A stretch of DNA of 37,405 nucleotides. It comes from Catajapyx aquilonaris (Eukaryota). This document shows, piece by piece, positions 11,428-34,400 of this stretch (positions are counted from its first letter, which is position 1; every line of letters begins with the position of its first letter). A model generated the notes under the pieces. It ran no database searches, was not told the DNA's origin, and worked only from the letters and a program-made list of their open reading frames with translations. The position numbers and the translations under genes were made by a program. The stretch lies in assembly GCA_000934665.2 (NCBI GenBank), contig JYFJ02003809.1, forward strand, positions 1 through 37,405, written 5' to 3'.

Positions 11428-11429
<2 letters not shown>

Positions 11430-11475: not shown

Positions 11476-11476
<1 letters not shown>

Positions 11477-13449: not shown

Positions 13450-14124
13450 TTCTGCATAATAACATGGCACTCCTCACATATTTCGGGAAGCCGCATGGTC
13501 AACGACCTCACCCGTTCCACCCACCCACCGAAACTATCGATTGATCCCGCCCTCCCACATCTGCAACACACACACACTACAACCCGGCGGCAAAAGACGC
13601 AAACATACCAAAAACAGTGGATGGCTGGCCCAGCTGCAATGATGCGCCAGAGGGTTCGAACCAGTAAGGGGGGGGGGGGCCTTGTCCGCAGTAGTTGTCT
13701 GCAGCACCCCCTCAACACCTGATGACCACGAGGGGCGGCGTGTGGTGGTGCCCGCACCGTGCCATGTCCGGTGTACAGTCCACTCGTGCAACCGCACCGT
13801 CCGGGTCTCTCTCAACGGACACGACACGGTCTGGCTGAGCGTACCACACCGTCGAACGACGCCGAATCCGAACAACACAACCGACGCCTTCGAAGGTCCG
13901 ACACCAACTGGCTCTGCAATGGGAGCTGGAAATCGCGTAGCTGCTTCATGGCTGTGTGGTGACGTCACGCAAATTAGCGAACGTGTGGCCTCATTTGCAA
14001 TCAAAGCGCGCCCGTTTAGTTTGGCGGCAAGTTGTTATGTAACGCCCGCTCATTGTCACTTTCCAACTTGACACTTGCCTTCAGGCCTTGCCCCTTTCAT
14101 TCCAGCAGTAGTTGCTACTTAATC
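13450..14124. promoter_or_regulatory. CpG-rich bidirectional promoter and first-exon region shared by ERMP1 (-) and QNG1 (+)
   Basis: Local CpG/GC island between divergent genes. Perfect palindromic CRE GTGACGTCAC at 13959-13968 and an E2F-like TTTGGCGGC near 14020. Candidate minus-strand donors for the ERMP1 non-coding exon include TTG|GTATGT at 13609/13608. Confidence 0.7.
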
Positions 14125-16721
14125 ATGGCGGAGGACATGGACCCGGGTTATAAATTTTATTCCAAGTGCAGTATGGATGGTGTACCAGGCGGTGTTCTAA
14201 CTCCAAGAGCGTCAGCTCAATTTATCAGCCTGGCTGCTGAGGATGTGACTTTGTCTAATGATGGGTCAAGGAGGGCAGCTGAGAAGGTATGTGGTGGGCC
14301 ATTACATTTCTGCAATGGCCTAATGCAGAGTCAGAGAAGTTGCTTGAGCTTGATTGTGGAGTCTACAACCTCAACCATCAACGCGCAAGTGATGCGTACT
14401 TTATTTTTGCCGACTTGACGTATGACACTCAGGAAAAGAATATTGGTTCAATTGATTAGCGCTGTCTTCCCTTGGAATGGTGTATGTACATGCCCTTTTT
14501 GCCGAATTGAGCCGATAAGGCTGCCGTTGAAGTACGTGTTCCTATTTCACCTCTCCAAACCAACTGATGCACTTCTATTCCTGTAATATTCAGCCCGACC
14601 TTTTTCGGGGTCACCTTGAAAGCTTCTGTATTTAGATTACACTGTGAAATCTATGTACATATTAATACAAATTGGCATTGTAGTATTGTTGCATGGGAAG
14701 TAGTGTAGCGTGGTTGCAATTCATAAATGCTATTTATTCATGGCATCACAGCAGGAAACTGGAATGCAATAGTTGACTGACTTGCAACAATCAACACTGC
14801 TTCCTGCCTGCATAATTTTCTCAGCTCTTGGATCGTATAGGCAGTGACAGACACTAAAATAAGTTAGCTTATGAACTTCATAGGCTGGCATGCGAGGATA
14901 CATGACAAATTTTGGGTGAACTTTGCTTTTCATTTATCGTCTGTATGTGTTTTTATGCCACCAACTTTTTATATCATGAAAATGTTGCACTCAACACAGT
15001 GAATTAGCTGAGGTGTCCAATATTTCAGCATCACTTGAGTATGCATTATGAAAATTGTTGATACACGTATTGCCCTTGTACTGTACTCGTCTATTCTGCC
15101 AAACTACTACATTATAACCAAATATATTGCAAGCAAGTAGTTGTTCGTATGACACTTTGGGAACATACGGAATGTGTTCAACTGTGCTAGCAGCAATATT
15201 ACATACAGTACGTGCAGGAAAATACAGATTAAATGTCAGATTCAGACCTTAGCCTATACATGTGAAATACTGAGTATCCTTTGCTTTGTTTTCAGATCAT
15301 TCAAGTTGCAGATAAAGTGGGATTTGGCAACTTCAAGCAAATGGCTCTTCATCCTTCAGTGGCCGATGAAAAGGCCATTGACTGGATATTTCTGATTGAT
15401 ACACTGAACTTCTCTTTTTGGACACCAGCAGGACAGGAGAAGTGGACTGTCCTGTGGAAAGGAGAAACATACACTGGGTACTTCGCTTTGTGTGCTGCAG
15501 TAAACAGAGCTATGTCGGTAAGTTTTGAAGGTTTGCTAAAAATGAGAAAAATTTAATAAATGTCCTCATTCTTACTGTTTTTAAATAATTTCTCGAAGCC
15601 AAGTAATCAAATAACAATTGAATTAATTATAAATTTATTTATGTATTTTATTTATTTATTTACCCCGTTTCAGGGCAGGGCCCTCTTGGGGGGAATTAAT
15701 TATAAAGATAAGCAACTTAGTAATTGCTGGAGAAAATTGCGTATATTCTTGTTATTATGGTATTTCACACGTAATATTTTCTGAAGGGAAATCAGAGCAG
15801 TTAAAGACATCAACCACCATACACTGCACACTGGCATAAATCTTAGGATTTGGCATTTCACACTTGCTTGTATTATTGCAGGAAGGTATGGATATCACAA
15901 ACCCAAACTTCTATGGTGCTGTGACTGAAGATCAGCTGGAGCATATCTTTCGTTCTGATACAAAGACACCAATTCCTATGATTAAGGAGAGAATTGAAGT
16001 TTTGCATGAGGCTGGAAAGAAGCTGCTGGAAAAGTTTTCTGGATCATTTGTTGAGTGTGTGAAGGCAAGTAACAAAAATGCCCAAGAGCTGCTAAAATTG
16101 ATTGTGAAGGAGTTTCCTGCCTATCGAGATGAAGCTGAGCTGCAGGGAAGGAGAGGTACGATATCTTAGTGGTCCATATGTATTTACAGTGTGAATCTAA
16201 AGCATGAATTTTTCTTCTAGTTTCCTTTTATAAGAGAGCCCAAATTTTGATTGGAGACATATGGGCTTGTTTTGAAGGGAAAGGACTGGGTGCATTTGAT
16301 GACATTGAATTCCTGACAATGTTTGCAGATTACAGGTATGTACAGTATGGTACATTACATCCTTTCAAGGAAATATTTCTGCACACAATGAAGTGTATAC
16401 TCACTGCATATGGTTGGCATTTAATACAATAGTTAAAATGTCACATGTTCCTTCAAAATTCTTCATTACTCCACTTGTATAGTTTTTATTTATGTTGTGA
16501 CATTTTTGGATCGTTACTCTGTTACAATATTCGTCTTCCTTAAACTCAAACTCCACCAAACTGTCAACAGTACTGCACAACTGACAACAATAGTCATTAC
16601 TTAGATTAATTGCATTACACAATCATATAAGCTTGAAATATTTTCCTTGCCTCGGATAGTTATAGCCTTGGTCTTCTTCCTGTTCATTATTCGTAACTGT
16701 TCTATGAGGTAGTTGGTCTTC

Positions 16722-16752
<31 letters not shown>

Positions 16753-17358
16753 GCAGAGTTCCTCAACCCTTAGTGGAGTTTGGAGTTATGTCATACAGTG
16801 ATGAACTGATGAAGAAACTGAAGAAAGGTGACATGTTTATTGAAACCATAATCACATGGTATAAATGTATGACTAGCATGGTTTATGGTATTCCATCTTC
16901 TGGAGGATGATCCGGAGTTAAAACTCATATCTTTGGTTGTAGATCTTGAGCAGGTGGACCCAATGTGACAATATTGTGAACGATACAATTCTTACTTTCT
17001 TACTTTCGTATTTTCTCACTGTCACTGTTCATAATCTGCTCAATATTTGGGTATCAACCTCTATAAATCACCCCATGTTGAATATGTGTACATATACTGG
17101 CACTAGAGCATATAATGACAGATTTAATGCATTGCAGGTGAGGAGATGAAAAATGGTGATCGTGAAGAAATTGAAATCCGAGGATGTTCCATCTTTGCCG
17201 TGGAGATGATCAAGGCCGATATCAGGAAGCTTGTACCAGATAGCAATGAAAAATTCAATTCCATCACCATAGATCACTTTTTGTGGGATTACAGAAGGGA
17301 GCATGCACAGGAGTTAGAGGCAATTCCTTACCATCAGGTTAGGTGCATCTACTACTGA
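14125..17358 (+). CDS. QNG1: Queuosine 5'-phosphate N-glycosylase/hydrolase (queuosine salvage protein, C9orf64/DUF2419 family), 6 exons, 354 aa
   Basis: Exons 14125-14286, 15296-15517, 15882-16155, 16221-16335, 16757-16827, 17138-17358. All are GT-AG and phase-consistent, 1065 nt in total. Family motifs: LTPRASAQFI, WIFLIDTLNFSFW, YTGYFALCAAVNRA, FPAYRDE, VSFYKRAQILIGDIW, LTMFADYRVPQ, EIEIRGCSI, IDHFLW, C-terminal HQVRCIYY. Confidence 0.94.
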
Positions 17359-17726
17359 AGCACTGCAGCTTGGTCAGAGTATGCATTGGAATAGAGAAGG
17401 AAATGGCAAGCAAGAGAAATCAAGAAAGGTTACGATTGGATATGGTTTGTTGCTTCTGTATTATTTAGAAATTGCCATTTGCCATACTAGTCCTCCACAT
17501 GTGAACTCTTAATGATAGCTACTATTTTTGAATATCAAGCAAGGTTATTGTAGTCATCTGTGCATATGTCAATGGGAACACGAATGGTTTTGTATAAGCA
17601 TTTGCATAGTCATGATAGGTTTTGACAAAGTTCATATTAAAAGTGCTATTCAGGGGATGAATTAGGAATAATTTGTTAAGAGTTCTTCTACTGAGGAGAT
17701 TGTACAAGTTTGCATAATTGGACAAA

Positions 17727-17732
17727 AATAAA
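17727..17732 (+). terminator. Candidate polyadenylation signal of QNG1
   Basis: AATAAA about 370 nt after the stop; an ATTAAA variant lies near 17636. Confidence 0.45.
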
Positions 17733-18497
17733 TTGGTTTCCTGAACCCACAGTGTGTATTCCCAGGCCTGCCTGATATTTTGGAAGCAGTTTTTTTTTGT
17801 TCCTGCTGAAGAATACGTCTTGGGAAATACTACCAAAATAATATTTCAAAACCTGGTTACATTTTTTCCTGCCTGAGCAACATCTTTATTACGAGTGGTT
17901 CAAAAACAAGTCTTGTTACATAAATATACAGTTTTGTTTTATCACATGACAGTAAATGCTACTGAATTTTGGAGGGGTTGTCACATATGCTGGCCATTTT
18001 GAATTTGACTTGAGAAAGACAGAAAGGTTAAGAACCTCAGCAATGTATTGCAAAATTATTTGCATCCATCATCACAGATTTATTGCAAGGAAATTCCTTT
18101 GGGACGTTAATTTACCCATCACTTGCTACACATGTAGGGCAAAAGTTATACAATGTTACAACAGATGAATGGAGAAGTATGTTCCAATGTGCTCAACAGA
18201 ATGGAAATATAGAACTGGAAACCTATGTGCACATGCTACTAAGAAGTTAGGGCTCATACAAAAACCTACAGAAGACTCATGGACTATGAAGTTACTTTGA
18301 CAGCCATGCACTAAATGTTTCCACTTATAATTACAGTCAATAATAATCAAAGGTATTGTTACAGTCATCAGTTCCTGGGGCAATAAATGTAATGAACATG
18401 TGGCGGGAAATGTATGACGTTTGGGTTTGCCCTCATTATTTTGTACTGGAAGAAGTGACATGAGACGATCGGAAGTAATCACAGTTAACGACAATAT

Positions 18498-18983
18498 TTA
18501 TACAAAAAGATCACGGATGGAAGAACATATGGAAGTTGCCCTGCATGCTGGCTCTTTATTATCATCAGGATCTTGAGCAGTACCTGAACAATGGACAGGA
18601 GAGGATGAAGATGTTACTGAAGTTGATGATAGAGAATCTGATGGCCTGCGGGGAGCATCTTGCTCTCTTAAGAAAGCTTCAATTGCAGTTCCTAGCATAT
18701 CAACATCTATAACAGATCCAGATGACCCATCCCATACAACCTTATTTTGGGTTTCGTCACCTTCATCGTCATCCACCTTTGCTTCACATCTAACACTCTC
18801 TTGCTCTGAAGTATCCTCAGCATCTGATGGTGGATATAAAAGAATAGGTGGTGGATAGCTGCAAGGGTCAGTGTCCGAAGCCCTTTCTGCCAGAGGCTGA
18901 TGACGGCCATTAAACCAGCATGCACCTGAAGAACGCCTTCTGCTGGTAACTGCACAGCCATCCAAAGAGTGGGACCGTGAGCC
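18498..18983 (-). CDS. Terminal coding exon of the same uncharacterised protein (161 aa + stop)
   Basis: Acceptor cattttcccacattgtAG at 18985-18984 in phase 0, giving GSRSHSLDGC... and joining cleanly to ...DLHAK of exon 27895-27345. Conserved-looking islands: KVVWDGSSGSVIDVDMLGTAIEAFL and C-terminal TSICSSIRDLFV. Minus-strand AATAAA signals lie downstream at 18084-18079 and 17890-17885. Confidence 0.68.
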   Translation of the reverse strand, partial: GSRSHSLDGCAVTSRRRSSGACWFNGRHQPLAERASDTDPCSYPPPILLYPPSDAEDTSEQESVRCEAKVDDDEGDETQNKVVWDGSSGSVIDVDMLGTAIEAFLREQDAPRRPSDSLSSTSVTSSSSPVHCSGTAQDPDDNKEPACRATSICSSIRDLFV

Positions 18984-20192
18984 CTACAATGTGGGAAAAT
19001 GTGAGTTTAACTTGCAACTAATGGGTGAACATACGAAGTGAATAACGGCCGCAACCTTGGAAATCAACAGTGCTGACCTTCCTGAAAATCACATTTTTAA
19101 CTAGTCTAAGACTCTAGAGAAATTCTGACACTTTACATGTTGGCAAGAAAAATTGCTATTTGAAATGAACACTTCTAATGGAAGGCACTGAATACACTCA
19201 TTTGACTGTACAGAGGCGCCATGAAAATCAGTCTGAAGTTGAGAATTTGTAGGATTCTTACCATCATCTGAGAGTGAGACTTACAATACACTTCAACTTG
19301 ATTTGTGTATTGTTTTCAAAATGTGAGTGTGAGATATTGTATTTTGAGTTTTCTGCGTTACGAGTGATCAGAAATAAGTGGTTCCCAAAGTAATGTAGCG
19401 GTATCATCAGTTGAAAGGTGACGTCAAAAGGGTGAACCAAATGGTGCAACTGCATGAACAATCTCATCCCTCTCATTTCGTCATTTCAGTAATCTAATAA
19501 AAGACCTCAGATATTGAAATTAGTGGCATAAATCTAAGAACTTTACTGCCCCCAGGACAATTAGTATATCCAGAACAAGTGGCAGAATCTTGTTATGCAT
19601 TGTTTTTGATATTGTTACCAAGAATGAATACATGATCAACAAGATCTGGATGTACTATCAATCCTACGTTCTGAGGGTAAGACAATAACGACAGTGATCA
19701 AACTCTCAAGCATGGTTCAGGTTTTTCAGGTAGCCTTACCTTTCTAAAAAAAAAAGTCAAAGATCTGCTTTTCATGTTCAATTACTTGACACACAGGCTT
19801 TATTTTTTTCATGAACATGAACATTGGTTTCAGACTACAAACATCAGGGTAAAATCTTTCAAGAACTAGAATATCTTTCTCCTTTGCCATGCCCATAGAG
19901 ATTCACACGCTTGTTGGTTTGAATGTTACATATCAGCGTATGTCGGATACACTTGGAAAATGGCGAAGAATCTTCCTCTGGCAAACACAAAGCATCATTG
20001 AAAAATTCCTCAACTCAAGATTTTACCCTAATTTTTCATAATCCTACACAGTATCAGTTAGGTACATTTACAAAAATGTCCCACAAAATAGATCAAGCTA
20101 ATGCTTAACATAATTTTAAAATGTGTTGTTAGAATTTTAAAGGCTACACTTTCATATCAGCTGACGCCACACTTTTACCTACACTACTTTCC

Positions 20193-20256
20193 TAGGCCTG
20201 TATCCACTTAAAGATAGGCCTGTACCCGCTGAAGGATAGGCCTGTGTCCGCTGGGA
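20193..20256. repeat. 22 bp tandem repeat, about 3 copies
   Basis: TAGGCCTGTATCCACTTAAAGA / TAGGCCTGTACCCGCTGAAGGA / TAGGCCTGTGTCCGCTGGGA. Confidence 0.75.
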
Positions 20257-20899
20257 GGGAAAGTCATGTCATGGGTTCTGTTCCCTACCCCTCCCAAATT
20301 CGGTCAGCCGATATGGAAGTCCTTCCTTTTTAACATTGTTATCATGTCCCTGCATATCACTGGTTTAACACACTCATAAAAATGGCAAGCAAAATAAATA
20401 CAAACTAACACACAAATGCATGAGATATACAAAATTCCTTCAGGTGCCCAAAATTCTAAAATTGCATAACTGGGCATACACATCTACAAGCTACTAGCCT
20501 AAATGTAGACATTTGACGTTGCTTGAACACCTGCAGGAAAATTATATAACTGGAGATCATACTCTACAAGATCAAATCTTGCAGTTTGTTATAAATATTA
20601 TTAGAGAACAACTTGGCACATGGACATTTCTCCCACCTCATAGTCCAAAGAAAAATAATTAAACCAAATACTACAAAGTAATGCAAAATGTTCAATATCA
20701 ATCCTCTTTATGTATACTCCTACCTACTACACAAAATGAAAATTAAAAATTAAAAAATTAAAAATGAAGGTTGTATAGAGCAACTGTTGTATTCTAAATT
20801 AGCTTTCCCAATATGAGAAAGAAGTACATTACATCAAAAGGAGTCAAGATTTGCAATTTTTGTCAACAAAATGTAGTAAAAACACACAAAATATACGGC

Positions 20900-21600
20900 A
20901 GAAAATATACGGGATAATTCCAATTGAAAGTGCAGTAGAAAAATCATCCTTGCTTGGGTCCCATCCCAGTATAGTATATTGAAATTAAGTGACTGTATAC
21001 TGTACCACAACTTTCAATGGACCAATACCACTCCATATGAAAGCTGGCATGTAGCAAGACTCTTTAATCTACACTTTGTGCAGTGTACTCTAGATCTGAA
21101 TGTGTATTTATGTGCTTATTAAATGAAGACCTCGGGAGAAAAATGATCAAGGTTCACTTCATGTGAAACTGAGATAATCCAATTTTAAATTTCGAAGGCC
21201 CATAAGCTTCCATTGTAAGTCTCACTTTTGGGGTCTTCCATAGTGTCCTATGATCATTACTCGACAACCACGACCAAACCATCATATTCTACACTAGTGA
21301 AAGTATCTTCCGAGATACAACGCCCTCTTATCCCCTTATCACTTGTTGTACGACTGCCCTATATTTAATACCCCTCGCAAAGCCTATCTTTATAATTTAT
21401 CAGTACTTCCCATGGAGCTGCTGCCTTTCGCATTCAACAACTTATAACAAAGCAACAAGCATTCTCTTTGTATTCTTTTTTTCTGACATTGTCAAACATT
21501 TTGAAATTATGTAAATGATGGTAACGGTGGTGGTGTCCCCCCAATAATGGTCACAGGCCGGATAACGGGGTATCAAATAAAGAAATAAAGAAATAAATAA
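20900..21600 (+). mobile_element. Decayed LINE-like 3' end with (AAAT/AAAG) tail
   Basis: Ends AACGGGGTATCAAATAAAGAAATAAAGAAATAAATAA; a related tail lies in reverse at about 15640-15685. The boundary is approximate and the protein similarity is weak. Confidence 0.35.
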
Positions 21601-22179
21601 GTATCTTCTGAGATATGTAACTCATATTTGACAAAAAGTGGATCTTGATCGTTCTTCTCCCGAGGTCTTCAAATATCAGGGTGGTATACAGTAAATGCTT
21701 TCCCAATAACATTACATCTTCCACACTCGATCTGCTTTGAAAGGATTTGATCATCTTATTTGTTATATTCTCCTGACTACCAGTTGAGGTCTTGACAGAG
21801 AAGTTGTCACAAATGCCATGCCAAATAAAAACCTGACTGTGAAGAGCACAACGAAGAGCATTACAATATTAGAACATAATTATAGGCAGTAGCATAAGGT
21901 TAGATACAGAGGTACCTAGTGTAACTGACCTATAGTAACTATGTTAAAATTTAAAGAGGACTGTTTTTTTATATATATAAAATCATTTTCTACGTGTGTA
22001 AAAATGAACATGTTCTGTGCCTTAAATGCAATGGGTATATAGTGTATAAGTTCAAACATTTTGAAGGATGTGCAATGGGTGTATGACCTTAAAGCTGCAG
22101 TTACATTTTTATGTAAAATCCTGTATTATAATATTCTTAATATTATACTGAAACACACCCAAGAAAGATTCACAGGTGA

Positions 22180-23937
22180 TTATGAAAGTGAACTCTCCAA
22201 ATGGCTCCCTCCCCTTCCGTGTCCGACTATTTTTGGTGATAGTGACTTTTTCCTGAGACTTTCCAGTTGTGCAGCAGACAGCTTGACAAACGTTCCCTTT
22301 TCTGTAGTCATCACCCTGGAAAACTGCAGGCCAGATGGCATGGGAATGAGCTGACTGCCATAGTTGTGCGGCATCTGTCCATCCCTTAATCCTTGCACCG
22401 AACGCTTTCCTTGACCACTGTGTGATCTAATACCTGGAGATGCAAAGAACTTTTGTGTTGGGAGGTCACCAACATCAAATGTAGATGATGACTCGCCTGA
22501 TAATGAAGAACCCTGGGTTGGTTGCACTGAGGCTAGTGGTGCCAGCTTGAGAGCCATTACTACCTCATCATTTTCAGTAATGGTTACGGCTGGAGGAAAC
22601 TTCACTGGTGACGCTGGTGGTGTGCCCTTCGGTTCATACCTCACCTCTACAGTGCGTTCTCCAAATGACCGGTCAAATATGATACGCCCACCCCGTCCTA
22701 TTCGGCGTTGAAATATCCCGACTTTGGCAGGCTCCTGCAAAACTGGAACATCTGGTACCGGTACATCTTTTATTGGTGCTAGGTAGGTGCAGTTCTCCTT
22801 TGGGTGAAATGCAAATGGATCTTCATCATCTGACTCATCACTTTCTTGGTATTGCGCATGTAGTGTGTTCTGCCTTTTTGTTTTCCCACTGGTTGACAAA
22901 AGTCGGACAGGAACAGTTGGTGGTGGATCATGCAGGTTCACCCAACCAGACTTTCCAGGATGGAACTTCTGTGCCGGAAATTTTCCACCCAGTACCCAGT
23001 CTGCATCATTACCATGCTGCAGTGGTCCTAATGATTTATTGTCATTTAGTGGTGCTCTTGGTGGTGATGGAGGTGTCACCTCACGAATCAACTTGCCATC
23101 AAAGTCTCCCGCACTGTATCTTGCCTCAAATATGTTCAGATTCACCTTGAGTTTCTCTCTTTTCACTGTTTCACGATCAGACACTAAGTCAGTCAGTGTC
23201 AGCACTTTACGCATGTCATGTCGCAAGGCCAACATTTTCTCATATGATCCTTCATCATTCTTTCTATTGCGACGTGTTTGCATCCGTTCAGAGCGGCGGC
23301 GAAAAGCCACATATGGGTCACCACTACTGACAGATTCTGTCTTGGTACGTAACAGAAGAGGGTGTCGTAGTACCAAACGCTTATGCAGCCAATAATCGTA
23401 CACAGCCGTTACAACATCATTAGGGGATGTAAAAAATAACTTGTGGGCTTCCTCCAGTGTAACCACCTTATTTACACTTTGTTGCTCCAAAACATCTATC
23501 ATTGCCTCAAATGTAAGGCCTTCCAAACCATGAGCTGAACACCACTGCTCATCATCTGAATCCATGTCATAGTCCGGGGGTGTTACGCACCCACCCAGTT
23601 CTGCACGCACTAACTGCTCAGGTTGTGTGTAGTTACATGGATAGCACCGCTCGTATTCTTCAGGATCAGTGAGTTCAAGTACCCCTGGGGTTGGTATTGC
23701 ATTTCCTTCATGTATAGCTTGTTGCAGGTGGTGCTCACATTCCTCATCCTTCTCCATGCCAGTAGGCATCTGCGGCACAGGACGGTTGATGACATTTTCT
23801 GGAAAGTCAGACTCTACACCATACATGATCGTCATTGGTCTAGAAGGGTCCAGAGCACGTGCACGAAATGACACCTTATTCGTTGGAATAGTACGTGGAG
23901 TAGCACCCTTTGAAGTTGATGGGGCCGTGGGACTCAT
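22180..23937 (-). CDS. EPC: Enhancer of polycomb-like protein (EPC1/EPC2/E(Pc) family, NuA4/Tip60 subunit), CDS without introns, 585 aa from ATG 23937
   Basis: Single open frame (ORF track 22180-24078). EPcA motifs: SFRARALD, VPQMPTGMEKDEECEHHLQQAI, PDYDMDSDDEQW, VYDYWLHKR, DPYVAFRRRSERMQTRRNRKNDEGSYEKM. EPcB-like motifs: DPFAF..CTYLAP and RRIGRGGRIIFDR. GCC-ATG start context at 23937. A polypyrimidine tract and AG at 23972-23971 indicate that ORF sequence upstream of 23970 is intronic. Confidence 0.9.
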   Translation of the reverse strand: MSPTAPSTSKGATPRTIPTNKVSFRARALDPSRPMTIMYGVESDFPENVINRPVPQMPTGMEKDEECEHHLQQAIHEGNAIPTPGVLELTDPEEYERCYPCNYTQPEQLVRAELGGCVTPPDYDMDSDDEQWCSAHGLEGLTFEAMIDVLEQQSVNKVVTLEEAHKLFFTSPNDVVTAVYDYWLHKRLVLRHPLLLRTKTESVSSGDPYVAFRRRSERMQTRRNRKNDEGSYEKMLALRHDMRKVLTLTDLVSDRETVKREKLKVNLNIFEARYSAGDFDGKLIREVTPPSPPRAPLNDNKSLGPLQHGNDADWVLGGKFPAQKFHPGKSGWVNLHDPPPTVPVRLLSTSGKTKRQNTLHAQYQESDESDDEDPFAFHPKENCTYLAPIKDVPVPDVPVLQEPAKVGIFQRRIGRGGRIIFDRSFGERTVEVRYEPKGTPPASPVKFPPAVTITENDEVVMALKLAPLASVQPTQGSSLSGESSSTFDVGDLPTQKFFASPGIRSHSGQGKRSVQGLRDGQMPHNYGSQLIPMPSGLQFSRVMTTEKGTFVKLSAAQLESLRKKSLSPKIVGHGRGGSHLESSLS

Positions 23938-24146
23938 GGCTGATCCAACAACGAAACCAGTATAGTCAGTCTGAAAAAAGCAAGAGCAAACTGCAGAATT
24001 TCTAATATTACCATGTATGCAGTCATGTGAGCCAAAGAATATGCAGCCGACCAGACAGCATACTAGTAAAAGAAACATCCTCTAAGCACATAATTATGGG
24101 TCGTCTTTGCCTGACCCAGCACTCTCATCTACACATCCTCTTTCAA

Positions 24147-24162
24147 CCCCCCCCCCCNNCCC
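24147..24162. other. Poly-C run containing two unresolved bases (NN at 24158-24159)
   Basis: Seen directly; local assembly uncertainty inside the putative EPC 5' UTR intron. Confidence 0.95.
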
Positions 24163-24325
24163 ATAAAGCAATATAGTGGCAGGAACTTGAAGGCCATGCA
24201 AATAAATTATTACCACCTGTTCATTTTGTTGTGCACATTAGAACTGCCCCATTACAGAAAAAAAAATCCAACAGTGTCCCAGCTGTTAACTGCCAAAATA
24301 CAGTAAAGGCTATAGCTACATGCAT

Positions 24326-24392
<67 letters not shown>
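24326..24392. repeat. (GAT)n microsatellite
   Basis: About 22 perfect units. Confidence 0.97.
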
Positions 24393-24393
<1 letters not shown>

Positions 24394-24423
24394 CATGACA
24401 CTTACAGCATATTCCCACGATGG

Positions 24424-24528
<105 letters not shown>

Positions 24529-24645
24529 GAGTTGCAGCCTTTTTACACACCTGCAGGTTATACGCAACTGTAGCAATGAACTCTCGTACCCGCATATACC
24601 CATATAATAATTACCCGTACTCCAGCACTATATTAGCCTACATAC

Positions 24646-24850
24646 CTGATGAGACGTGAGTACACCGCCGGTGACCACTTGGTCGCTTCTCTGCGGGTGG
24701 CACCTGTACCGCTGCTGTCCCCTTCTTGGATGGCTGTGATTAACTGGAGATATGCTCCGATTCGGATGGGACGGGGATGACGGCCATTGCGGTGCCGTAG
24801 CCAACCGACAAGTGACGTCAACTGACTGGGTCATGGTTACCGTATCAGAA
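24646..24850 (-). promoter_or_regulatory. Candidate promoter and 5' UTR exon of the EPC-like gene
   Basis: Small CpG-rich patch with a CRE TGACGTCA at 24813-24820. It ends in a strong donor CAG|GTATGT (24646/24645) that pairs with the acceptor at 23972-23971 (675 nt intron). Confidence 0.55.
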
Positions 24851-25124
24851 GTGAGCTTTATTTATTTTGTCAAACTGCAATTTAATTCGTATGTGCTATA
24901 TGAATGTATTTATCGTCACATGAAAGGCAAACCTGAACCACATACATAATAATCAGCCAACTATACTTGGACAACAATGGCAACTCTGTAATGCGCATGA
25001 TTCGAATAATTTGTTCAGGTGAAATCACAACGGAAAAATTCAAATATGTGCCACACCCATTGCTGGCCATCTAATAATTATTTTTTTAAATTGTAGTTAT
25101 TTTTAATTTAATAAAATAATCGCG

Positions 25125-25179
25125 GCCACCATCGACCCCCACGGAGAAGGCTTCTCGACCCCCAGGTTGGGAACCACTG
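25125..25179. mobile_element. hAT (Charlie-like) MITE terminus
   Basis: CGACCCCCAGGTTGGGAACCACTG is the reverse complement of a CAGTGGTTCCCAA-type TIR. Confidence 0.5.
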
Positions 25180-25568
25180 ATCTAATACAGACACTGCCAA
25201 GTTCCATTGGCTGTTTAAAACATAAAGGGAAGTTATGAGCAGCTAGAAAAACGTGGTCCGAAAGGGTGCATAATTATAATTATTTAGATACATGTGTGCG
25301 AGTTCATGCGAGTATAGAGGCGGTAGAGGTTGTGAATTTCTGTTCATACAATAATTTATTTTTTAAAATTGCAAAGGTATGGGTATGTTGAGGTGGGCGA
25401 ATGCATATTTCCCTGCCAATGCAAAGGTGGGATTGCAGATTGGTCGCAGAGTATAGGGAATCACGGATATGTGAATGCACGGAGGAAAGGGTGAGGGTGG
25501 GGGTGTGAATATGATTGGCATCATCACTGGCAATATAAGTCCGCGGATAGAAACTATGGTGGGCACTG

Positions 25569-25659
25569 TAGGCCGCAGGCCTAGAAAAGAACGAGCGAAG
25601 CGAGTGGTTTTCTAGGCCAGCGCCCTAGGAAAATGCGAGCGTAGCGAGGGTTTTCCTAG
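25569..25659 (+). mobile_element. Helitron-like 3' end with double hairpin (copy 2)
   Basis: GGCCTAGAAAA..cgagcgaagcgag..TTTTCTAGGCC (25578-25618), then CTAGGAAAA..TTTTCCTAG|T (25625-25660). The G-rich body from about 25330 shares ggtgggggtgtgaa with the 130-145 region. Confidence 0.62.
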
Positions 25660-27344
25660 TGTAAAAATAATTACGCATGTCGTACAAAGACACTGCCGAG
25701 AATAATAATAATTGTAGCTCGCATTCGCAACGTCATGAATGTAACCATGACTGTAACACTCGGCTTGGATAATATTACACATTGCGTATGAAGGTGCACA
25801 ACTGCTCCAGCCGCAAGGCCCTTAGCAGGATCAGAAGTGCATCATCCTCCGGTGGCCGGCACATAATGGCATCACCTTTCTAAAGAATTTCTGATTACTC
25901 TTCCTCTACGTGGTAGTCAAGGTAACGCAGGTAACGCGGCCTGATCTCTCGTCACTTGCCTTATTATCCGACCATCCTCTGAAAGATTAAGGTGAACAAA
26001 TAGGCTATAGCAAGATGAAAATGTCGCGGAAAAATGGCATTTTTAAAATATAGGGGTCGTACCTCCTTGTATACTGCGTGTAACAATACTAAGGCGACAT
26101 TAATCTTCGTCGATCATCGGTTCTAAGTAAATGAAGCCTTTCTGGGATAAATCGATTGTGGAGGACTACTAACGTGAAAATAATACGATTGTGTCATATT
26201 TCTCCAATATCAGCTCCAAGCTCCGTATTCATTATGGCAAAATCCAGTATCGAGTTGCATGCATAGTCGGATGTTCGTTCTAGCCAATAAGGAAAATTAG
26301 ACACATCTTCATGGCAACCCCGGTGTGTGTGTAATTACTACAAGCGAGGCATGATCCAATTTGTCTCCATTATACCTGTCATCTGCGACATGTAATGAGC
26401 TATCTCCCAATTGAGTGTCACAGACATCCATCACGCAGAGGCTGGTGGGGCATTTTTTTGTACATTCACACCAGTACTTTACGACATGCTACACCTATAT
26501 GCTGATGTACTGTATACAGTAATGAACCACATTTCAAAGGTTTCCTATGCATTCGGATGAGAATATAATTATTTTGGAAAGTAGTAGGCCTACTAATGAG
26601 CTTGCTGGGCTATAAACATTGTGCAAAACCTAATCTAAATCCATTGAACTTTGGAAACGAAAATTAAACGCTATAGTATATAGTTTAACGCAAAACAAGC
26701 TTGCCGAAAGCTGATTTGCCTAGATAAGCTTTTGCTTTGCAGGTTTTACTTGCGTTAGACAATCACCGGCGTGTCAGTGCCCCGACATACCGCTTGTAAG
26801 ACTAGCGAATTACTTCTCAGTGTTATTGTGAATAGTAATTACACTCAGAAATTCGCGAATATGTTGACCTTGTATCAGTTGTATGGACTTCGAAACTCTA
26901 AAAATGGTGCGAGTTATTTGAATAATTGCGAGATTTCAAAACTTGTGCGCCAATAGCGCGGTGTTTTAATGGACGCCTAATCGGATTTTCGCAGCTCACC
27001 TTTTAATGCGACCATGTAAACGTGGTCAGGTTTCGCTACAAGATTAAAAGAAACCCACAATCTCCGCTGGATGTAAAAGGATTTTGCGGTTATCCACTCA
27101 GGCGGCCTATCGTCAAACCCCACCCACGTTCCAACAAATAATAGAAATGTATAGGCTATATAGTGTAGGCCTACTGTACCCAATATGTTAAAAAATAACA
27201 TGACGTACTGTGCAGCAATGCCTTTTTTTGTAATTGCAAAAATATAAATATGATGATTTTTTTTAGATTTGCTTTTTTGCTTTGATTAATACTGTCCATT
27301 TATGATATATCTCTAGATGAGAAGGAATAGGTTATGAATAGCAC

Positions 27345-27893
27345 CTTGGCGTGAAGATCGGACAAATCAATCTCGGATTCTCTTCGCCTTGCCGTGTAGA
27401 TGTCGTTAGCCGAGGCCGTAAGGGTGAGCAGAGAGAGAAGATCCGTGTTGGAGCAGATGATCCCTTGATTGCCCCTTGCACCCACCCCAGCGCCCTTTCG
27501 AACCACTCCGACCGAATCAGAAAATCGTCGCACTTCGGTTCGAGATGGGGCTAAAAGCATGCTGGAAGTGGAGGCTGCAGGTTCCGCTGGTGCTCGACGT
27601 ATCGCCTCGGGTGACACTTGCTCCATGCTGCACACTTTCTCTTGCGATGGCGTGCGTGTTATCCGTAGTCGGACGCGACGAGGCGGATGACCAGCTGCAG
27701 ACTTGTCGGATCGGCGGGTGTCGATCGGTGTGAAGTCGGTGCGGTACGTTGTCCGATCAGTCGTGTCTTCCACAACCACATGGGGGGTCGGTATAGACGA
27801 AGCAGACGGAGTTAACGACAGGCAGCGTTTCTTGTCCTTGTCACTAGTCACAAGCAAGGACTTGGGCGCTGCTGTCATTGACGACCTCCTCAT
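27345..27893 (-). CDS. Coding exon of an uncharacterised Ser/Arg-rich protein (candidate host gene), 183 codons
   Basis: Open, GC-rich frame with a strong acceptor (ttttgttttgttttgttgacAG, exon starts 27895) followed by CC-ATG, and a phase-0 donor AAG|GTGCTA at 27345/27344. It is either the first coding exon or an internal phase-1 exon. Conserved-looking island: RRFSD...GIICSNTDLLSLL. Confidence 0.7.
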
Positions 27894-27973
27894 GGCTGTC
27901 AACAAAACAAAACAAAAATAACGAACCGGTTACGCTGAAAGTTACCAACCGTAAAGTATAAAGGCAAATATAA

Positions 27974-28115
27974 AGCAGCGTTTTCATGTGAGCGATTTCA
28001 TCAGCGATGAATCCAATTGTTTGGGGCGAAAATCGATTGTTATCGTGATTGTTACTTTCGTCCCAAACAATTGGATTCATCGCTGATCAAATCGCTCACA
28101 TATGTAAACGCGGCT
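27974..28115. mobile_element. Fold-back MITE, PIF/Harbinger-like, TAA target duplication
   Basis: Arms CATGTGAGCGATTTCATCAGCGATGAATCCAATTGTTTGGG / CCCAAACAATTGGATTCATCGCTGATCAAATCGCTCACAT, flanked by TAA (27971-27973) and TAA (28116-28118). Confidence 0.78.
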
Positions 28116-28122
28116 TAAAGCA

Positions 28123-28236
28123 TCCCAAAGCAGCTTTTTTTTTGCGCAAAATCGAGCTGTGACAATTATAACCTCCTCCCAGCTATTGTGGGTGAGCTGT
28201 CACAGCTCGACTTCGCATTAACAAGCTGCTTTGGGA
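28123..28236. mobile_element. Palindromic MITE-like element
   Basis: TCCCAAAGCAGCTT..TCGAGCTGTGACA / TGTCACAGCTCGA..AAGCTGCTTTGGGA. Confidence 0.65.
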
Positions 28237-28308
28237 ATAGGACTTAAATGTCCAAATAAAATTGTGGACGCTAATCATTTCAAACGTGCCCAACATATTG
28301 CAAACATA

Positions 28309-28396
28309 TTTGCAAACATACGTAAAAATGCGTAAAACTAGATGCCGAACACGACATCCCTGGATCCAGTTTTACGCATTATGACATGTTTGCAAA
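28309..28396. mobile_element. Palindromic MITE-like element
   Basis: TTTGCAAACAT..AATGCGTAAAACT / AGTTTTACGCATT..ATGTTTGCAAA. Confidence 0.55.
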
Positions 28397-30659
28397 AAGG
28401 GACCTTATTGATTTACGCTGGTACTGTACTCACAGTCAGTGTACTGTATACATGTGAGACTAGAAGTCGCGCTGGGATTAAGACATAACTGTTCACGTGC
28501 ACATATTGCACTTTAATAAACCATTATTCTTGGACGAGGGAGGGTAGGATAGTTACCCCCACCCCAGTCTGTCCTTGGGAACACTTAGCAACATTTACGA
28601 ATAAATTACTGAAGTTATCAGCGTTCGTTAAACTCCTCACTAAATGCTCAGATATTTTTACGATTACTTTACGACCATTCTAGCTCCGTTCCACCCTTAC
28701 CAAGTTACTGTTCTCATTAAACCCACGCTTCTCATTTACTCTGACGTAACTTCTTTCAGGATGACCCACAGTCCGGCTCCCACATCGTCTCTGGTTTCCA
28801 AATAAATAAAAAATTGAACCTTGATAAAATTGTGCGAAATGGCCCCAAGGCATATTGAAGTGGCCTGCCGAGACATCTCAATTTCCTCAAACCTTGCGCG
28901 AGGAAATGACTTGAGCCAATGTGCGACCACTTTGCACGGTTGAAGGAGTACGCCGACACTGATGAGTTTGATAATTGAATCGACTCTAAGGACGTCAGAG
29001 GGACCCATGCTTCTCCTTCTCTCTCCCGGTGTCTCCCTGATCTCCGAATCTCATCGACCTTTTCTTCCCATCGATTCTAGCTACGTTTTCAACCGCAAGT
29101 AAGAAACTGTGAAACGTTGGCGATCATTATGATGAGTAGGTACTGCGTGTCACGGAATAAGAATCGGCTTATGTTGTTTCAGGTGCTGGAAAACACGGAA
29201 TTAACATGTGTATCTAGTGTATTTGATATTCCCGAGCGGAAATGTTCACGCATTAATTTGCATGCACCCACGCATCGTCCTGAAGCCCACAGATGCAAAA
29301 CTAACCAGCATAATGCTAGTTTATTTGGGTAAATGAACGTGGACACGCCACCTCGCATTTGGGTACACACCAGACACGGCCTTTATTCTGTGGACAGTGG
29401 CGCCAGTGATATTAAAAGTAATTAATGACACCATTTTCCTTTTTTTGCGCAGCATAAACGCATCTACTAAACTACATACACCCCGAAGACGTGTTTGCTG
29501 AAGTGTTATTTCAAAGCCTCGCCGGCTTTTATCAGACGAGTGCTGTTCAGCGGCGGGCCTCAGTGTACAGAGTTTGACAGGAGAAAAACAACCTTTTTTG
29601 GCGCTAGTTAGTAGACCTCAGTACCGGCTGCTAATGATGTCAAACTTTCTATACGTTTCACTGTGCTGTAGAGTGTAGAGGCAATGCTTGGCTCTAACAT
29701 GAGGCGGTCATTATATCCTGAGCAGTTAGGTAAACCGCAGCACTTGACGCCACGATGGGTAGCTCTTGACTGTTAGGATAACGAATTGTGCTGATGCCCT
29801 GATGCTATAGATCGTGCGAGATCTGGCTTGAAAAAGTCTTCACGGAAGTCATTTAAAAAGCGCAGGCATTTCACCCTGCGGCAAAAGGTTCTGCACTGTG
29901 CCACTAATGCCATTAATCATCTACCGGGCTCACATGTCACAATGGCTCTTTCCTTAGCCCTGTCGTCTTCTCCCTGAATGTCAATTTCTATTTCTTTCAT
30001 AATACTGTTAGAGACTGTTATTGGCTATTACTGTAAAAGGCTTCAACAGGCTCTACCTAAAAATTTTATGGCGAATTTCAACGACTGCATTTTAGACACC
30101 AGTAATTTGTGGAAGTTTAACTATGTCACTAATTAATTAAAATATATGTAATCATGAGCTTAGAAAATTGAGGCTCAGATATCAAATCCTCTCATGAAGC
30201 AAAATATCAGCGACGATTTTTCCCACTCAGCTGTGCATAATTATGTAATCCTGACCAAGCAAAAGTGAGTCTGGCCTACTCTGGATAATGGCGAGAACTG
30301 ATGCAGATTTTAGCTACTGCTTACACTGTGCCCTTCAGCCCCCATTAACCTATTCCAGGGATAAGCTATAGTTCAAGGAGGACAAGGCTCTAACATCCCC
30401 CGGCTATCCTTGAACCTCTCGTAATAATTAGGCCTACGTCCTATCTGTTACAAAACCCGCCTGCAGCCCCAACCTATCCGGTGACCGCGAGAATCGTTCC
30501 TCATTATTAGAAATGGCTACGAATTGTATTACATAACATTATAAGCAAGGGCTGTTCCATTCCATGCGAAGACCTGCAATGCAAAACGATCACAATGTGA
30601 TTGTGATCATCGTGTAAGACAGTAGCTTACTTTCTCTTACTTACTTACTTTCTCATGGT

Positions 30660-31420
30660 CAAGCCAGTTTTATGCCAAAGCCATTGTTTCATCAAAAAAT
30701 GGTAATAAGGCATTCCCTACGGGACTTCTAACTCAAATATTGAACTGAGTCATTCATATGCGCATTCATATAATAGGTTTTCATTTCTCATGTACCAAAA
30801 CTCTTTCGGACAAACGTATCTGGAAGTCCTAATGACATACTAGAAAGCTAATTGTTGTATCTACAATGCCAGAAAACGTTTGTTGTACACTTTTAAACCA
30901 CACATACGATTCCGAATGATTCGGTATTGGAGAGAGCCTCGTTAATTTTAAAAAAGACACAAGAGACTTGTTTGCAGTCCCTTGGCATGAACAGGACTTC
31001 GTTAGAGTTCAATGCCTGTAGCCCATTTATTGGCAACTATCCACGGTAATTGTCCGGAGTTGACTCAGGAAAACGACAGCAATCCTGGGATAGCTCTCAC
31101 CGGGGACCGAATCCAATACCCCCTGAATGGGATGTCTGACGCCCTGCTCATACTGTATACACTCAGACTGCAATGCAGCACAAAACCTCGTCTTTTCATC
31201 CGATTTGATATTTTGAGCACTCCGGAAGAAATATACTCACAAATGCTATACGTGCTGCATGCATATAGCCATAAGGGTCGGCGCAGTAGCATCAGGTGCG
31301 GGTTCGTGCTCGATTGCCAGGAGAAAATCTTCAGGGAATGTTTACCCTGCCGCTTCGGTGAATCAGTATAGTCCAATCCTCAAGAGAGCTTTTCATCAAT
31401 ATGAGGTAGGTAAGTTGCTC
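30660..31420 (-). pseudogene. Decayed piggyBac-like transposase
   Basis: Ordered degenerate motifs across stops and frameshifts: IDEKL..PKRQGKHSLKIF (cf. IDExL..KPxKYGIKIF), PDNY (cf. DNYF), GTANK, VYNK..GIVD (cf. YNxxxGGVD). Confidence 0.5.
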
Positions 31421-34400
31421 GGTACTGAGGATTATAGACGGTGCGGCGTGGAAAATCACATAGAGTGACAGCTGCGATTTTAGTAGTATACGTAGTACTC
31501 CACGCCATAATTACATGCTTTGATTATAACAAAAACAATATCTCTTACGACCAAGGTGTATTAATAGCTCGGAACAAACTGTATACGCGCGTTCAGCTCC
31601 TGTAGAGTGAATACCAATAATGTGGACTTAGGATATTATCTCCCAACAGGCATATTATTTGTCTAAAGTCGCCGGTGGTCATACAGTATATAGTCGACCG
31701 AAACCACGACTATCTCCGCATTCCGCATTGCTGCCGGCTCTATAACGCAAGTGTTGTTTTTACGCCTCCAAGCAAAAAGTTTTGCATGTATATAATTGAT
31801 TTTTCCGGAGCGGGTTGCATTTTATGTGTGTGTGTGTACTGTACAGTATATACGTAAACGGCTAACCATCATCATGGATGTATACACGGCTGTATCTGGA
31901 AGTTATTGAGCTTTGTTTGCCTGCATTATTTCACGTATAGCTTCAAGCGTCACTAAACACACTAATATGACACGCAGTGATTGACATGCAACGCCAAAAT
32001 AAGCTGTTGTGTTGACGCAAATTCTCCAGAGGCTCGTGTATTTTTCAGCAGTTTTTGTGCAAATGTGACTATAGAAATGTAATATTATTCAATTAGGTAG
32101 GGAATCAATAGGCATTGCATGAGTCCGTATATAGGAGTTGAACTCGAATAAGATGACTGTGATTTTTAAAACTGGATGTTACTGTACACAGTCATGTAAC
32201 AAGGCGAATAATCAGATCATGATTTTAAATGGTAATCATTTTAGTCTCCAACGCTTGCAGAGTTTCACAACCAAGTTACCACATCAGTATCTCAAATTAT
32301 GACGTAAATTACTCAAATTACTGCACAGAGGTGACTGTACCATTTTCGTCAAAATTATGCACAATTTTCATAGCCCGTGACTGGGCTACTCCGGACTTTT
32401 TGGAGTTCATCATGTGTTTTGATGATGTGCATTTTAAAAATATTTTAAAAGCCGAGAATCCCCACTAATCCCATGCGAAATTGAAGGGTTGAAACTCTTC
32501 TTTCGTGAGAGAATCATCCAGTGAGATATGGGGTCGAACTCGAGACCTTCGACACTGCCACAATATCTCTCTCTGATTACTTCCACTGCGATTAGCTGCA
32601 ACACATGAAGCTAATTATGGCAACGTGGCAGCACTAAATGTGGCGCGAGCTTAATTTCTACTCGAGCAAAAAAGAAGGAACTTGAAACTCCAGGAAATAG
32701 ATCCGACTATTTTCATTAGCTCCAGCATCAAATCCGCATGGAAACATCGTTTCCCAGGAAGCGTATGCAGGTGCAAGGTATACGTAGACGATAATATGTA
32801 TTAGTCCAGTGACACACTGTTCTACAGTGTCGAAATTTACAGGCAATGCAACAGAAATACTGTACAATATGTACACTCAGGGTTTTGTTGTGGTGTTCTA
32901 TTTGTGCGGTCTTTTTCAGCCTTTGAAAACTTATATCTGGATGTAGCTTTTGCCAGCAGCATTCTTTCATCTAGTCTGTGTGTACCTAACAATACGCTAC
33001 CACCCCGTAAACACCATTGCCAACCCACTGACACACAAAAGTTAAGCTAGGAAACCCCCACTAATATCGACTTCATGTATATCCAGCACATCAATACGAT
33101 CAGACTGAATGCAATTTTCTTTTACTTCCTCCCACATCCGGGCAGAGTCTGTCTCTCCCCAGAGGATGAACTGGGACACGGGTAAAGGCAGAAGGGAAGT
33201 GAAAGAGTCAATAAGTGCTCCACTCACCGGCCATTTGAGCTGTGAGCACGCGCTGGATCCTGCTGTGCTCTGGGGGAAGGAGGACTGGGGACTGGCAGGG
33301 GTAGGCTTCACTGCAAGGGGTAGGAAGGTAGGTGGGGCGGGCAAGGGATGGGTACGGGGCATGTATCCGTACGGGTTGGATAGGGGCGGGTGTGCGCAGA
33401 TTCACTGTGCAGGTCAGGTGACGGAGGGGGCCGCCTACAAGCCTTTTTGGAGCGTGCAAAAGCAAGGAAGGAAAAGGAAGGAATATGGGAAGAGCCACAG
33501 GTGGATGGGGCGGAATTTTCAACCCCCCCCCAAATGAACGTGATCGATAAGCAATCACGGGGGTTTAATGGGTCACCACTTTCGGATAGGAAATTGCACT
33601 GTTATTGCTAACATGATATGTGTAAAGTGCAATCACGGAGCCCCGGACGACTGGCATGTCAATATTCGGAGTGTAATGGGTATATCCCTTCAAAAAAATA
33701 TTAATGATTCAAATCTGAACTTTTTCTTCAAGTAACTATAATGTTTACCTGCGGAAGTCTACGTACACTTCTATTTTTGCCCGCTCGTAAAAAAAAAATC
33801 CAATTTTAGTGTTGCAAGGATTGGCAGCAATTCCAAAAGGACTGTTGGAGGTGTCTCCTTCACTAAAGCTGCAGTATGTCAAGTGGTAATTACGCTCAGG
33901 GCTGCGTGTCATTCTAGACACCCGAGAAACAAAGGGAAGCACTCCAAATTCGTCAGAAAATCATCTGTCAGCACTGTCACGTCACTGTACAAAATGCTCC
34001 CGGCGGACCAAGTAATGCGACCCTTGCATGCGTCACATAGGAAGAGGTCCATTAGGAAAAAAACCCCGCTATACACTGAGTGCATAAAATGCGTTTAACT
34101 GCAACAAGTCTGGTTTTCCAACAAATTGCAGCAATTCTATTAGGTTTGCCAGCGAACGCTGTGCTTCACTGTAAACCCGTTTATATGTGGCAAGCTTGAT
34201 TCAATTTAACACCGTTCGTTACTCATCTATGTGGTGTAATCCGGTACAGCATATTGAGCAATGGTTTGCATTTTAATCCTCATTCTGTCCTGCATCCGGC
34301 AAAATACTGCGTCAGTCACAAATCCATAAGCTGCGGTCCGTATACTTATCATGCGCGATCTGCTTTTTCCAACGCCAAATGCGATCAACGACTTTGGAGG

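Follow-up and report, generated by a model that had tools for sequence, protein, structure and literature searches.

The closest described systems to the locus examined here, a same-strand gene pair in Catajapyx aquilonaris in which a gene of the Enhancer-of-polycomb (EPC) family lies within an intron of a gene assigned to the arthropod kairos family, are the nested genes of Drosophila melanogaster and the mouse H13/Mcts2 locus. The pair occupies the minus strand of a stretch of 37,405 nucleotides (nt) (NCBI GenBank assembly GCA_000934665.2, contig JYFJ02003809.1, positions 1 to 37,405), which was analysed whole and which we refer to as the window. In D. melanogaster ~10% of genes are reported to occur in nested structures (PMC3814207), with 71.27% of nested genes on the strand opposite to their host, so ~29% on the same strand (PMC3814207; similar figures in PMC5174743). 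The preliminary description of the locus had stated that most nested genes are antisense and had treated same-strand nesting as a rarity, which at ~29%, with 72.53% of the same-strand cases being single-exon genes, it is not (the single-exon share of opposite-strand nested genes is given as 37.41%; PMC3814207). Same-strand nested genes are also reported to be more testis-biased, and nested genes as a class to evolve faster, the authors giving selection against mis-splicing as the cause of the pattern (PMC3814207); a second study describes the same biases, together with rapid divergence of expression and sequence after nesting (Assis 2016, PMC5174743). At mouse H13/Mcts2, transcription of the nested gene is reported to be able to force premature termination of the host (PMC13309782).

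The C. aquilonaris locus is a typical member of one known class, the same-strand nested gene with an uninterrupted coding exon. As with single-exon genes nested on the host strand in Drosophila (Lee & Chang 2013, PMC3814207; Assis 2016, PMC5174743), the inner gene is enclosed by a host intron and shares the host's orientation, has an uninterrupted coding sequence and evolves fast, the host has a long intron, the cost proposed is mis-splicing and transcriptional interference, and the remedy proposed is divergent expression. It fits the published pattern, in which same-strand inner genes are mostly intronless and fast-evolving, and leaves current understanding unchallenged. Unlike the Drosophila nested genes, where there is no CpG depletion, the locus is partly CpG-depleted, and its inner gene probably has an intron in the 5′ untranslated region (5′UTR), with a strong acceptor in frame with the host donor. 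The mouse H13/Mcts2 locus likewise has a gene nested within a host gene; its nested-gene activity is reported to decide whether host transcription reaches the distal 3′ end, and the DNA methylation of its internal promoter to differ from the surroundings, but it is a mammalian imprinted locus with methylation of a promoter CpG island (PMC13309782), whereas here there is only a sequence footprint, the observed-to-expected CpG ratio (CpG o/e). New in this analysis are the in-frame strong acceptor near the start of the EPC-like open reading frame (ORF) and a CpG-depletion boundary near 24.56 kb. The locus offers a concrete test case of a host coping with a same-strand inner gene whose acceptor outranks its own, sharpened by the fact that the host straddles the sharp CpG boundary, and it yields a correct model for two genes that automatic annotation could merge, split or miss.

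A two-exon host gene

Host coding exon 1 (27345..27893, minus strand) runs from the first ATG at 27893 over 183 codons and ends in phase 0 (GC content 0.565), its C-terminal residues ...DLHAK at 27345 being followed directly by GT at 27344-27343 (AAG/GTGCTA). The intron (18984..27344, minus strand) is 8,361 nt long, phase 0 and of the GT...AG type; it closes with AG at 18985-18984, after which coding exon 2 (18498..18983, minus strand) opens with GGC TCA CGG, reading GSRSHSLD from 18983 and continuing to IRDLFV (161 codons plus TAA at 18500-18498). The donor matches 6/9 consensus positions, and the acceptor tract has 12/17 pyrimidines, below the 13-of-17 filter used in our scan of the intron for acceptors. 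Beyond the donor the exon-1 frame stays open for 15 codons, to a stop at 27300. The spliced protein, a conceptual join of the two exon ORFs, has 183 + 161 = 344 amino acids (aa), 14.8% Ser and 9.9% Arg, and six R-[RK]-x-[ST] sites. Two AATAAA hexamers 3′ of the host stop, starting at 18084 and 17890 (17885..18084, minus strand; pattern matches), are candidate host poly(A) signals. Most of the preliminary exon model was recovered in this reading: exon 2 at 18983-18498 starting in phase 0, the joined 344-aa Ser/Arg-rich protein, the ~8.4 kb intron with the EPC-like ORF (23937-22180) inside it in the same orientation, and the phase-0 end of exon 1 at 27345; its exon-1 start at 27895 included two untranslated bases, the ATG being at 27893.

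That the two exons belong to one gene was shown by homology. A profile hidden Markov model (HMM), built from 12 homologues with no rows from the window, was run on the 977 six-frame window ORFs of ≥25 aa and picked only two of them, in collinear order: the exon-1 ORF (E 5.7e-13, profile positions 7-114, 40.4 bits) and the exon-2 ORF (E 4.9e-27, positions 157-310, 90.9 bits), the next ORF having E 0.44. The spliced model gave a single alignment to the profile (positions 7-310 of 311, E 4.7e-39) at 130.6 bits, close to the two exon scores summed. Collinear matching of both exons to the same proteins, the check proposed in the preliminary description, thus came out in favour of one gene. In direct BLASTP comparisons exon 1 matched the relatives P0122 (E 3e-9) and P0131 (E 9e-8), in both N-terminal to their exon-2-like part, and both halves are encoded in one ORF by some relatives, among them P0126 with 396 aa from a contig of 1,336 nt. 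Because exon 1 ends in ...DLHAK and exon 2 starts with GSRSHSLD, the splice rebuilds a conserved motif, the junction AK/GSRSHSLD restoring the kairos-family motif LK-G-S-R-S-N-S-F-D. When longer proteins were searched with exon 1 by a word-based method, no match reached E ≤ 0.01; the relationship surfaced through exon 2 and through the pairwise and profile comparisons. The two host exons are one gene, and the two-exon model is established as far as sequence allows; that an EPC-like gene of the same orientation sits in the intron of this host we hold with high confidence.

The preliminary description had called the host an unknown gene, and it can now be assigned to a family. A phmmer search with exon 2 against 1.84 billion representatives returned 33 matches at E ≤ 1e-3, at most 39% identical to the host, and in 23 of the 33 the match ends ≤2 residues from the C-terminus of the relative. 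All 12 of the 33 relatives inspected end in ...DLFVK and carry, in order before it, an RRFSD-like site, GIVCSNTDL...SSAQEI, (K)xxRSNSFD, WF.RHQP and VVWD..SGSV.D; the portion upstream of the exon-2-like part holds the RRFSD-like sites, GIVCSNTDL(I)S(I)LSSLTSSAQEI and ...LK(G)SRSNSFD. Host exon 1 contains RRFSDS... and GIICSNTDLLSLLTLTASANDI, and host exon 2 has the C-terminal family motifs WF.GRHQP, VVWD.SSGSVID and SICSSIRDLFV. In the alignment the motif set RRFSD, GI(V/I)CSNTDL..L(T/S)SA.(E/D)I, (K)..RS.S(F/L)D and WF..RHQP is present in order in the host, as are VVWD..SGSV.D..LG.AIE.FL and the C-terminal SICS..(K/R)DLFV(K). The host also deviates from these motifs, with L for F in SNSFD and other substitutions, and its C-terminus is ...DLFV followed by TAA (18498-18503, minus strand), so that the last Lys, conserved in 12/12 relatives, is absent.

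A profile search recovered 512 kairos-family members, and among the 120 matches listed every organism name is that of an insect. Most of these 120 are annotated as 'uncharacterized', and two are labelled by NCBI as 'uncharacterized protein kairos' (P0159 of Venturia canescens and P0198 of Halyomorpha halys). In a tree of the window exon and 33 homologues chosen from the matches, built from the last 200 residues only, the terminal branch of host exon 2 measures 4.32, the median being 0.34. A Pfam scan of both host exons found no family, and the ESM Atlas result was only 'hypothetical protein, Arthropoda'. By its sequence, then, the host belongs to the arthropod 'kairos' family as a strongly diverged member that falls outside every listed insect sequence: the match is full-length and collinear with all family motifs in order, as in other members, and the host differs from them in its low identity, its long branch and its DLFV end. 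Drosophila kairos is reported to be linked to circadian period (PMC10299278, PMC10659367). The label used here derives from the NCBI names of two relatives and from sequence likeness, and should not be taken to imply orthology to the fly gene or a clock role. The Pfam family GRIN_C, the C-terminus of G protein-regulated inducer of neurite outgrowth, scored below threshold in 6/8 kairos relatives scanned (P0123, P0126, P0146, P0122, P0136 and P0144; E 0.011-0.29), these weak matches sitting over the VVWD...FL region, and a remote tie of the kairos family to vertebrate GPRIN proteins may exist.

An EPC-family gene within the host intron

The nested EPC-like ORF (22180..23937, minus strand) is one uninterrupted coding exon of 585 codons, from ATG at 23937 to TAA at 22182-22180, and lies wholly within the host intron (27344-18984), both being on the minus strand. 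Its conserved N-terminal region (nested-protein residues 20-296; 23050..23880, minus strand) aligned in a phmmer search of PDB sequences to residues 2-295 of human EPC1 (8qr1_C, 8xvg_M; E 4e-65), and yeast Epl1 chains matched at E 1e-8 to 1e-10. Two short motifs further downstream are kept as well, DPFAF...YLAP (DPFAF..C.Y.AP) and RRIGRGGRI (RR.GRGGR). Of 8,000 candidates scored in a search with the whole ORF, 1,898 matched at E ≤ 1e-5; EPC-family proteins make up all of the best 120 listed, with 39-54% identity over the aligned part and 44-69% query coverage. From sequence likeness the nested protein is unambiguously an EPC-family homologue, despite a Pfam score below threshold (see below). 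EPC1, E(Pc) and yeast Epl1 form the scaffold of the TIP60/NuA4 acetyltransferase core, and the N-terminal region of human EPC1 lies within the solved complex. The nested protein resembles them in the aligned region and in the two motifs, and is unlike them in having only 585 aa, no E_Pc_C domain, no canonical start Met and an intronless coding sequence. The Pfam family E_Pc_C (PF06752) had no match on the nested protein, nor on most of the listed insect matches, so it is not defining for arthropod EPC members.

Over the N-terminal EPC region, the nested copy is 49-55% identical to eight arthropod EPCs (from insects, a springtail, Daphnia, a centipede and a horseshoe crab), which are 63-90% identical among themselves. 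At the 142 columns that are invariant in these eight, the nested protein keeps 102 and changes 40. It also lacks the KRKHK-rich and GNWPWC...CLTSL segments present in the arthropod proteins aligned with it. In a tree computed from the first 330-340 residues of the window copy and of 33 proteins picked among the 120 listed, the terminal branch of the window copy is 3.36 against a median of 0.21. The usual arthropod EPC start Met (MSKLSFRARALD, MSKLSF...) is Thr in the nested copy (ACG, 23883-23881), and the ORF extends 18 codons upstream of this canonical start to its own ATG. Five EPC relatives (P0043, P0028, P0062, P0091 and P0112; 632-671 aa) have in common with the nested copy an N-K start, a short extension at the N-terminus and a number of derived residues, and form a tight clade on a long stem (1.24); the N-K-start form is thus not unique to the window, and since these relatives have short extensions only, ATG 23937 is a plausible native start. 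Two members of this clade, P0091 and P0265, were called on contigs of 14-20 kb, which hints that an uninterrupted EPC ORF may exist in the genomic DNA of that lineage as well. The GC content of the nested ORF is 0.473, vs. 0.36-0.40 in the flanking intron, and the persistence of 585 open codons at ~50% divergence argues for a working gene.

The internal acceptor and a candidate 5′ end of the nested gene

A strong acceptor-like site, AGTTTGCTCTTGCTTTTTTCAG followed by ACTG (23971..23992, minus strand; 15/17 pyrimidines, exon start 23970), lies 33 nt before the nested ATG and is one of three sites of such strength in the 8,361-nt intron. The exon that it opens is in phase 0 and stays free of stops up to the nested ATG, so the acceptor is in frame with the phase-0 donor of host exon 1. 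The concern raised in the preliminary description, that the host must splice past an internal acceptor and the 3′ end of another gene, is legitimate, and the acceptor gives it a concrete form. Upstream of this acceptor there are three donor-like sites that match 8/9 consensus positions, with exon ends at 27000, 24646 and 24551. The latter two (CAG/GTATGT at 24646 and CAG/GTGTGT at 24551) fall in a CpG-rich block that we consider, from its sequence patterns, a candidate for both the promoter and a non-coding first exon of the nested gene (24551..24860, minus strand), within which TCAGT occurs at 24825-24821 and TGACGTCA at 24820-24813. Downstream of the nested stop no AATAAA occurs within 2.3 kb and the nearest ATTAAA is at 811 nt; in all, one AATAAA and two ATTAAA were observed vs. 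2.8 and 3.1 expected, a shortfall that is not significant.

The ~25 nt before the two start codons are alike (27893-27918 and 23937-23962, minus strand), both being GT-rich and then reading CAGCCATGAG in the same register. Their local alignment score was 24 against 17.6 +/- 2.4 for shuffled sequences, a value reached by 2% of shuffles, and the likeness is possibly due to chance or to a shared start context.

A CpG-depletion boundary within the host gene

CpG depletion is the mutational footprint of germline DNA methylation. The window changes in this respect within 24300..24900, the best single change point being 24561: CpG o/e is 0.37 over 1-13200, 0.80 over 13201-14400 (a CpG-rich island between an ERMP1-like and a queuosine-salvage (Q_salvage) gene), 0.40 over 14401-24157 and 0.88 over 24160-37405. 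Beside the change point, the CpG-rich block 24651-24900 holds 16 CpG (o/e 0.97). The TpG+CpA excess is mostly higher in the depleted domain (1.08-1.61 vs. 0.95-1.41), as deamination of methyl-CpG predicts. The host straddles the boundary, with CpG o/e of 1.10 in exon 1 and 0.31 in exon 2, the nested ORF having 0.51. Methylated genes of arthropods are reported to be enriched for conserved, evenly expressed housekeeping genes, with tissue-specific genes tending to be unmethylated (PMC7343188). The boundary fits separate promoters for the two genes and different breadths of expression, which probably differ because the depletion covers the nested gene and not host exon 1.

A model of the locus and its alternatives

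We favour, with moderate confidence, an account in which two separate minus-strand protein-coding genes are nested and each has its own promoter and pattern of expression. The outer gene is a divergent member of the kairos family, whose Ser/Arg-rich proteins have several R-R-x-S sites and a conserved C-terminal ...SICS..KDLFV, and its coding sequence is split into two exons; the inner one is an intact, fast-evolving EPC-family gene with a single coding exon. A CpG-rich promoter belonging to the inner gene most likely lies at ~24.65-24.85 kb together with a short non-coding first exon, which would be spliced to the acceptor at 23971, and the 3′ end of the inner gene would fall within the 3 kb preceding host exon 2. 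Host transcripts would read through the inner gene, bypass its strong acceptor and 3′ end, and splice 27345 to 18983. CpG depletion spans the inner gene and everything downstream and spares host exon 1 and the first 2.8 kb of the intron, so that the inner gene, the ERMP1-like gene and the Q_salvage gene may form one historically methylated, broadly expressed block, with the host starting in an unmethylated domain. Host expression would then likely be the more restricted, the inner gene being broadly expressed, including in the germline, and this difference in breadth would limit interference between the two. Such a reading would yield the partitioned expression suggested in the preliminary description, an idea with which the CpG boundary, as a sequence footprint, is indirectly consistent.

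The nested gene of the mouse pair, Mcts2, is a retrogene. The nested coding sequence is an uninterrupted ORF of 1,755 nt, and its neighbours are split, the ERMP1-like gene over at least seven ORF pieces and the Q_salvage gene over at least three. The best pair of repeats flanking the nested gene is of 16 nt with 2 mismatches (24085-24100 and 21871-21886) and has no A-run beside it. A derivation of the single-exon coding sequence by retroposition stands at about an even chance.

Several points weigh against this account. Neither a poly(A) remnant nor a convincing target-site duplication was found beside the nested gene, and it likely has a 5′ intron, which would count against retroposition. The Pfam family EPL1 (PF10513) scored 13.6-14.2 bits on the nested protein, below the gathering cut-off of 25.4, with six other ordinary or related EPCs in the same scan at 28.8-47.8 bits. 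The divergence of the nested protein may be lineage-wide rather than that of a duplicate, because the branch of host exon 2 (4.32 vs. 0.34) is comparable to that of the EPC-like protein (3.36 vs. 0.21). For the nested gene, the proposed promoter, first exon and 3′ end are guesses from sequence patterns. The inner acceptor outranks the host splice sites (host donor 6/9; host acceptor 12/17 vs. 15/17 pyrimidines), so clean skipping of the inner gene is not self-evident. The CpG boundary is resolved to ~300 nt only, 24160-24650 being mostly microsatellite with 5 CpGs, and so the step could coincide with two Ns at 24158-24159 and mark a contig join with no promoter. Finally, host exon 2 is CpG-poor and exon 1 is not, which needs the extra assumption of read-through or of spreading from neighbouring genes.

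The alternative that survives best, although we consider it unlikely, is a shared first exon, in which host exon 1 is alternatively spliced to exon 2 or to the acceptor at 23971 and the inner gene lacks a separate promoter. In the second case the 183-aa kairos N-terminus would be joined in frame, through a linker of 11 residues, to the 585-aa EPC-like protein. The phases allow it, host exon 1 ending in phase 0 and the exon from 23970 being in phase 0 without a stop before the EPC ATG, though we estimate that such compatibility arises by chance in about 1 in 5 cases. The inner acceptor is stronger than that of the host and would be met first by the spliceosome, and Thr stands where EPCs canonically start with Met; yet the five N-K-start relatives begin 4-15 residues upstream of the N-K region with no kairos-like N-terminus, and the CpG-rich block with its donor-like sites at 24.55-24.86 kb would supply a closer 5′ exon. 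The more specific proposition that one promoter and first exon serve two unrelated proteins, with a kairos N-terminus/EPC chimera made by alternative splicing, seems to us distinctly unlikely. Were it true, a phospho-site-rich kairos N-terminus would be placed on a TIP60/NuA4-type EPC scaffold, and the CpG boundary would mark the start of the methylated, constitutively used part of the locus.

It is quite improbable that the EPC-like ORF is a dead or silent insert, be it an intronic relic without expression or a processed pseudogene, in which case there would be no conflict with the host. An uninterrupted ORF within an intron, the very long branch, the 40/142 changed columns, the sub-threshold EPL1 score and the scarcity of poly(A) hexamers downstream are what such an insert might present. 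Against this, 585 codons have stayed open despite ~50% amino-acid divergence, 102/142 invariant columns and the short C-terminal motifs are kept, the ORF is richer in GC than the flanking intron, and the hexamer shortfall is not significant.

An assembly artefact, in which a wrong join at the two Ns has misplaced exon 1, whose true position would not be 8.4 kb upstream of exon 2, so that the nesting is only apparent, we judge very improbable. These Ns (24158-24159), in a homopolymer (poly-G) run, are the only N run of the window; they fall between exon 1 and the EPC-like ORF, beside a (TGA)22 (24326-24392) and an (AAT)34 microsatellite (24425-24528), and CpG o/e changes within a few hundred bases of them. 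In a blastn comparison of one side of the Ns with the other there were 0 high-scoring segment pairs, so no repeat is common to both sides, a result that would suit a misjoin and is in itself uninformative. Nevertheless, the halves of the host gene on either side of the Ns are collinear and correctly ordered and oriented, the CpG step is best placed ~400 nt away from the Ns, and two Ns in a homopolymer look like length ambiguity rather than a scaffold gap. A misjoin there could not undo the nesting in any case, because the EPC-like ORF and exon 2 share one N-free stretch; as no exon-1-like ORF lies between them, the true exon 1 must be upstream of the nested gene.

Least of all, and to our minds extremely improbable, the two host ORFs are separate genes, or exon 2 is the 3′ exon of the EPC-like gene: the open frame beyond the donor would permit an unspliced 198-aa product, but the profile alignment is continuous across the junction, relatives encode both halves in one ORF, and the kairos C-terminal motifs are present in 0/9 aligned EPC-family rows (including five separate sequences), so that the assignment of exon 2 to the EPC-like gene was rejected mainly by homology (the one donor inspected by hand within the EPC-like ORF, GT at 22433-22432, is in phase 1 vs. 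the phase-0 acceptor of exon 2).

Neighbouring genes and other features of the window

An Rfam scan of the window gave 0 matches. Within the host intron, an SPC12-like ORF (26980-27285, minus strand; signal peptidase 12 kDa subunit) matched Pfam SPC12 below threshold (E 0.0055, profile positions 9-70 of 71) as one of 94 ORFs scanned with Pfam, and it ends at the strong donor-like site AAG/GTGAGC (exon end 27000). A PDB sequence search with this ORF gave no support, and we treat it as a probable chance match rather than a gene; it could be a decayed gene fragment. Downstream of the nested gene, the host intron also holds a 22-nt tandem repeat in 2.8 copies (20193-20253).

Beyond the host, the ERMP1-like metallopeptidase gene (1033-9500, minus strand) consists of Peptidase_M28, ERMP1-TM and ERMP1_C pieces over at least seven ORFs, and the Q_salvage gene (15266-17355, plus strand) of three ORF pieces, its 3′ end converging on that of the host. 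The GC- and CpG-rich island between these two genes (13200-14400; o/e 0.80) is possibly their shared divergent promoter. Upstream of the host ATG, at a distance of 93-208 nt, there is an inverted repeat (27986-28101) with 46-nt arms that are 96% complementary and a 24-nt loop, and two further nested inverted repeats lie just upstream of it (28123-28236); in their structure, these repeats of the host 5′ region look like small insertions of the foldback type or of the miniature inverted-repeat transposable element (MITE) type.

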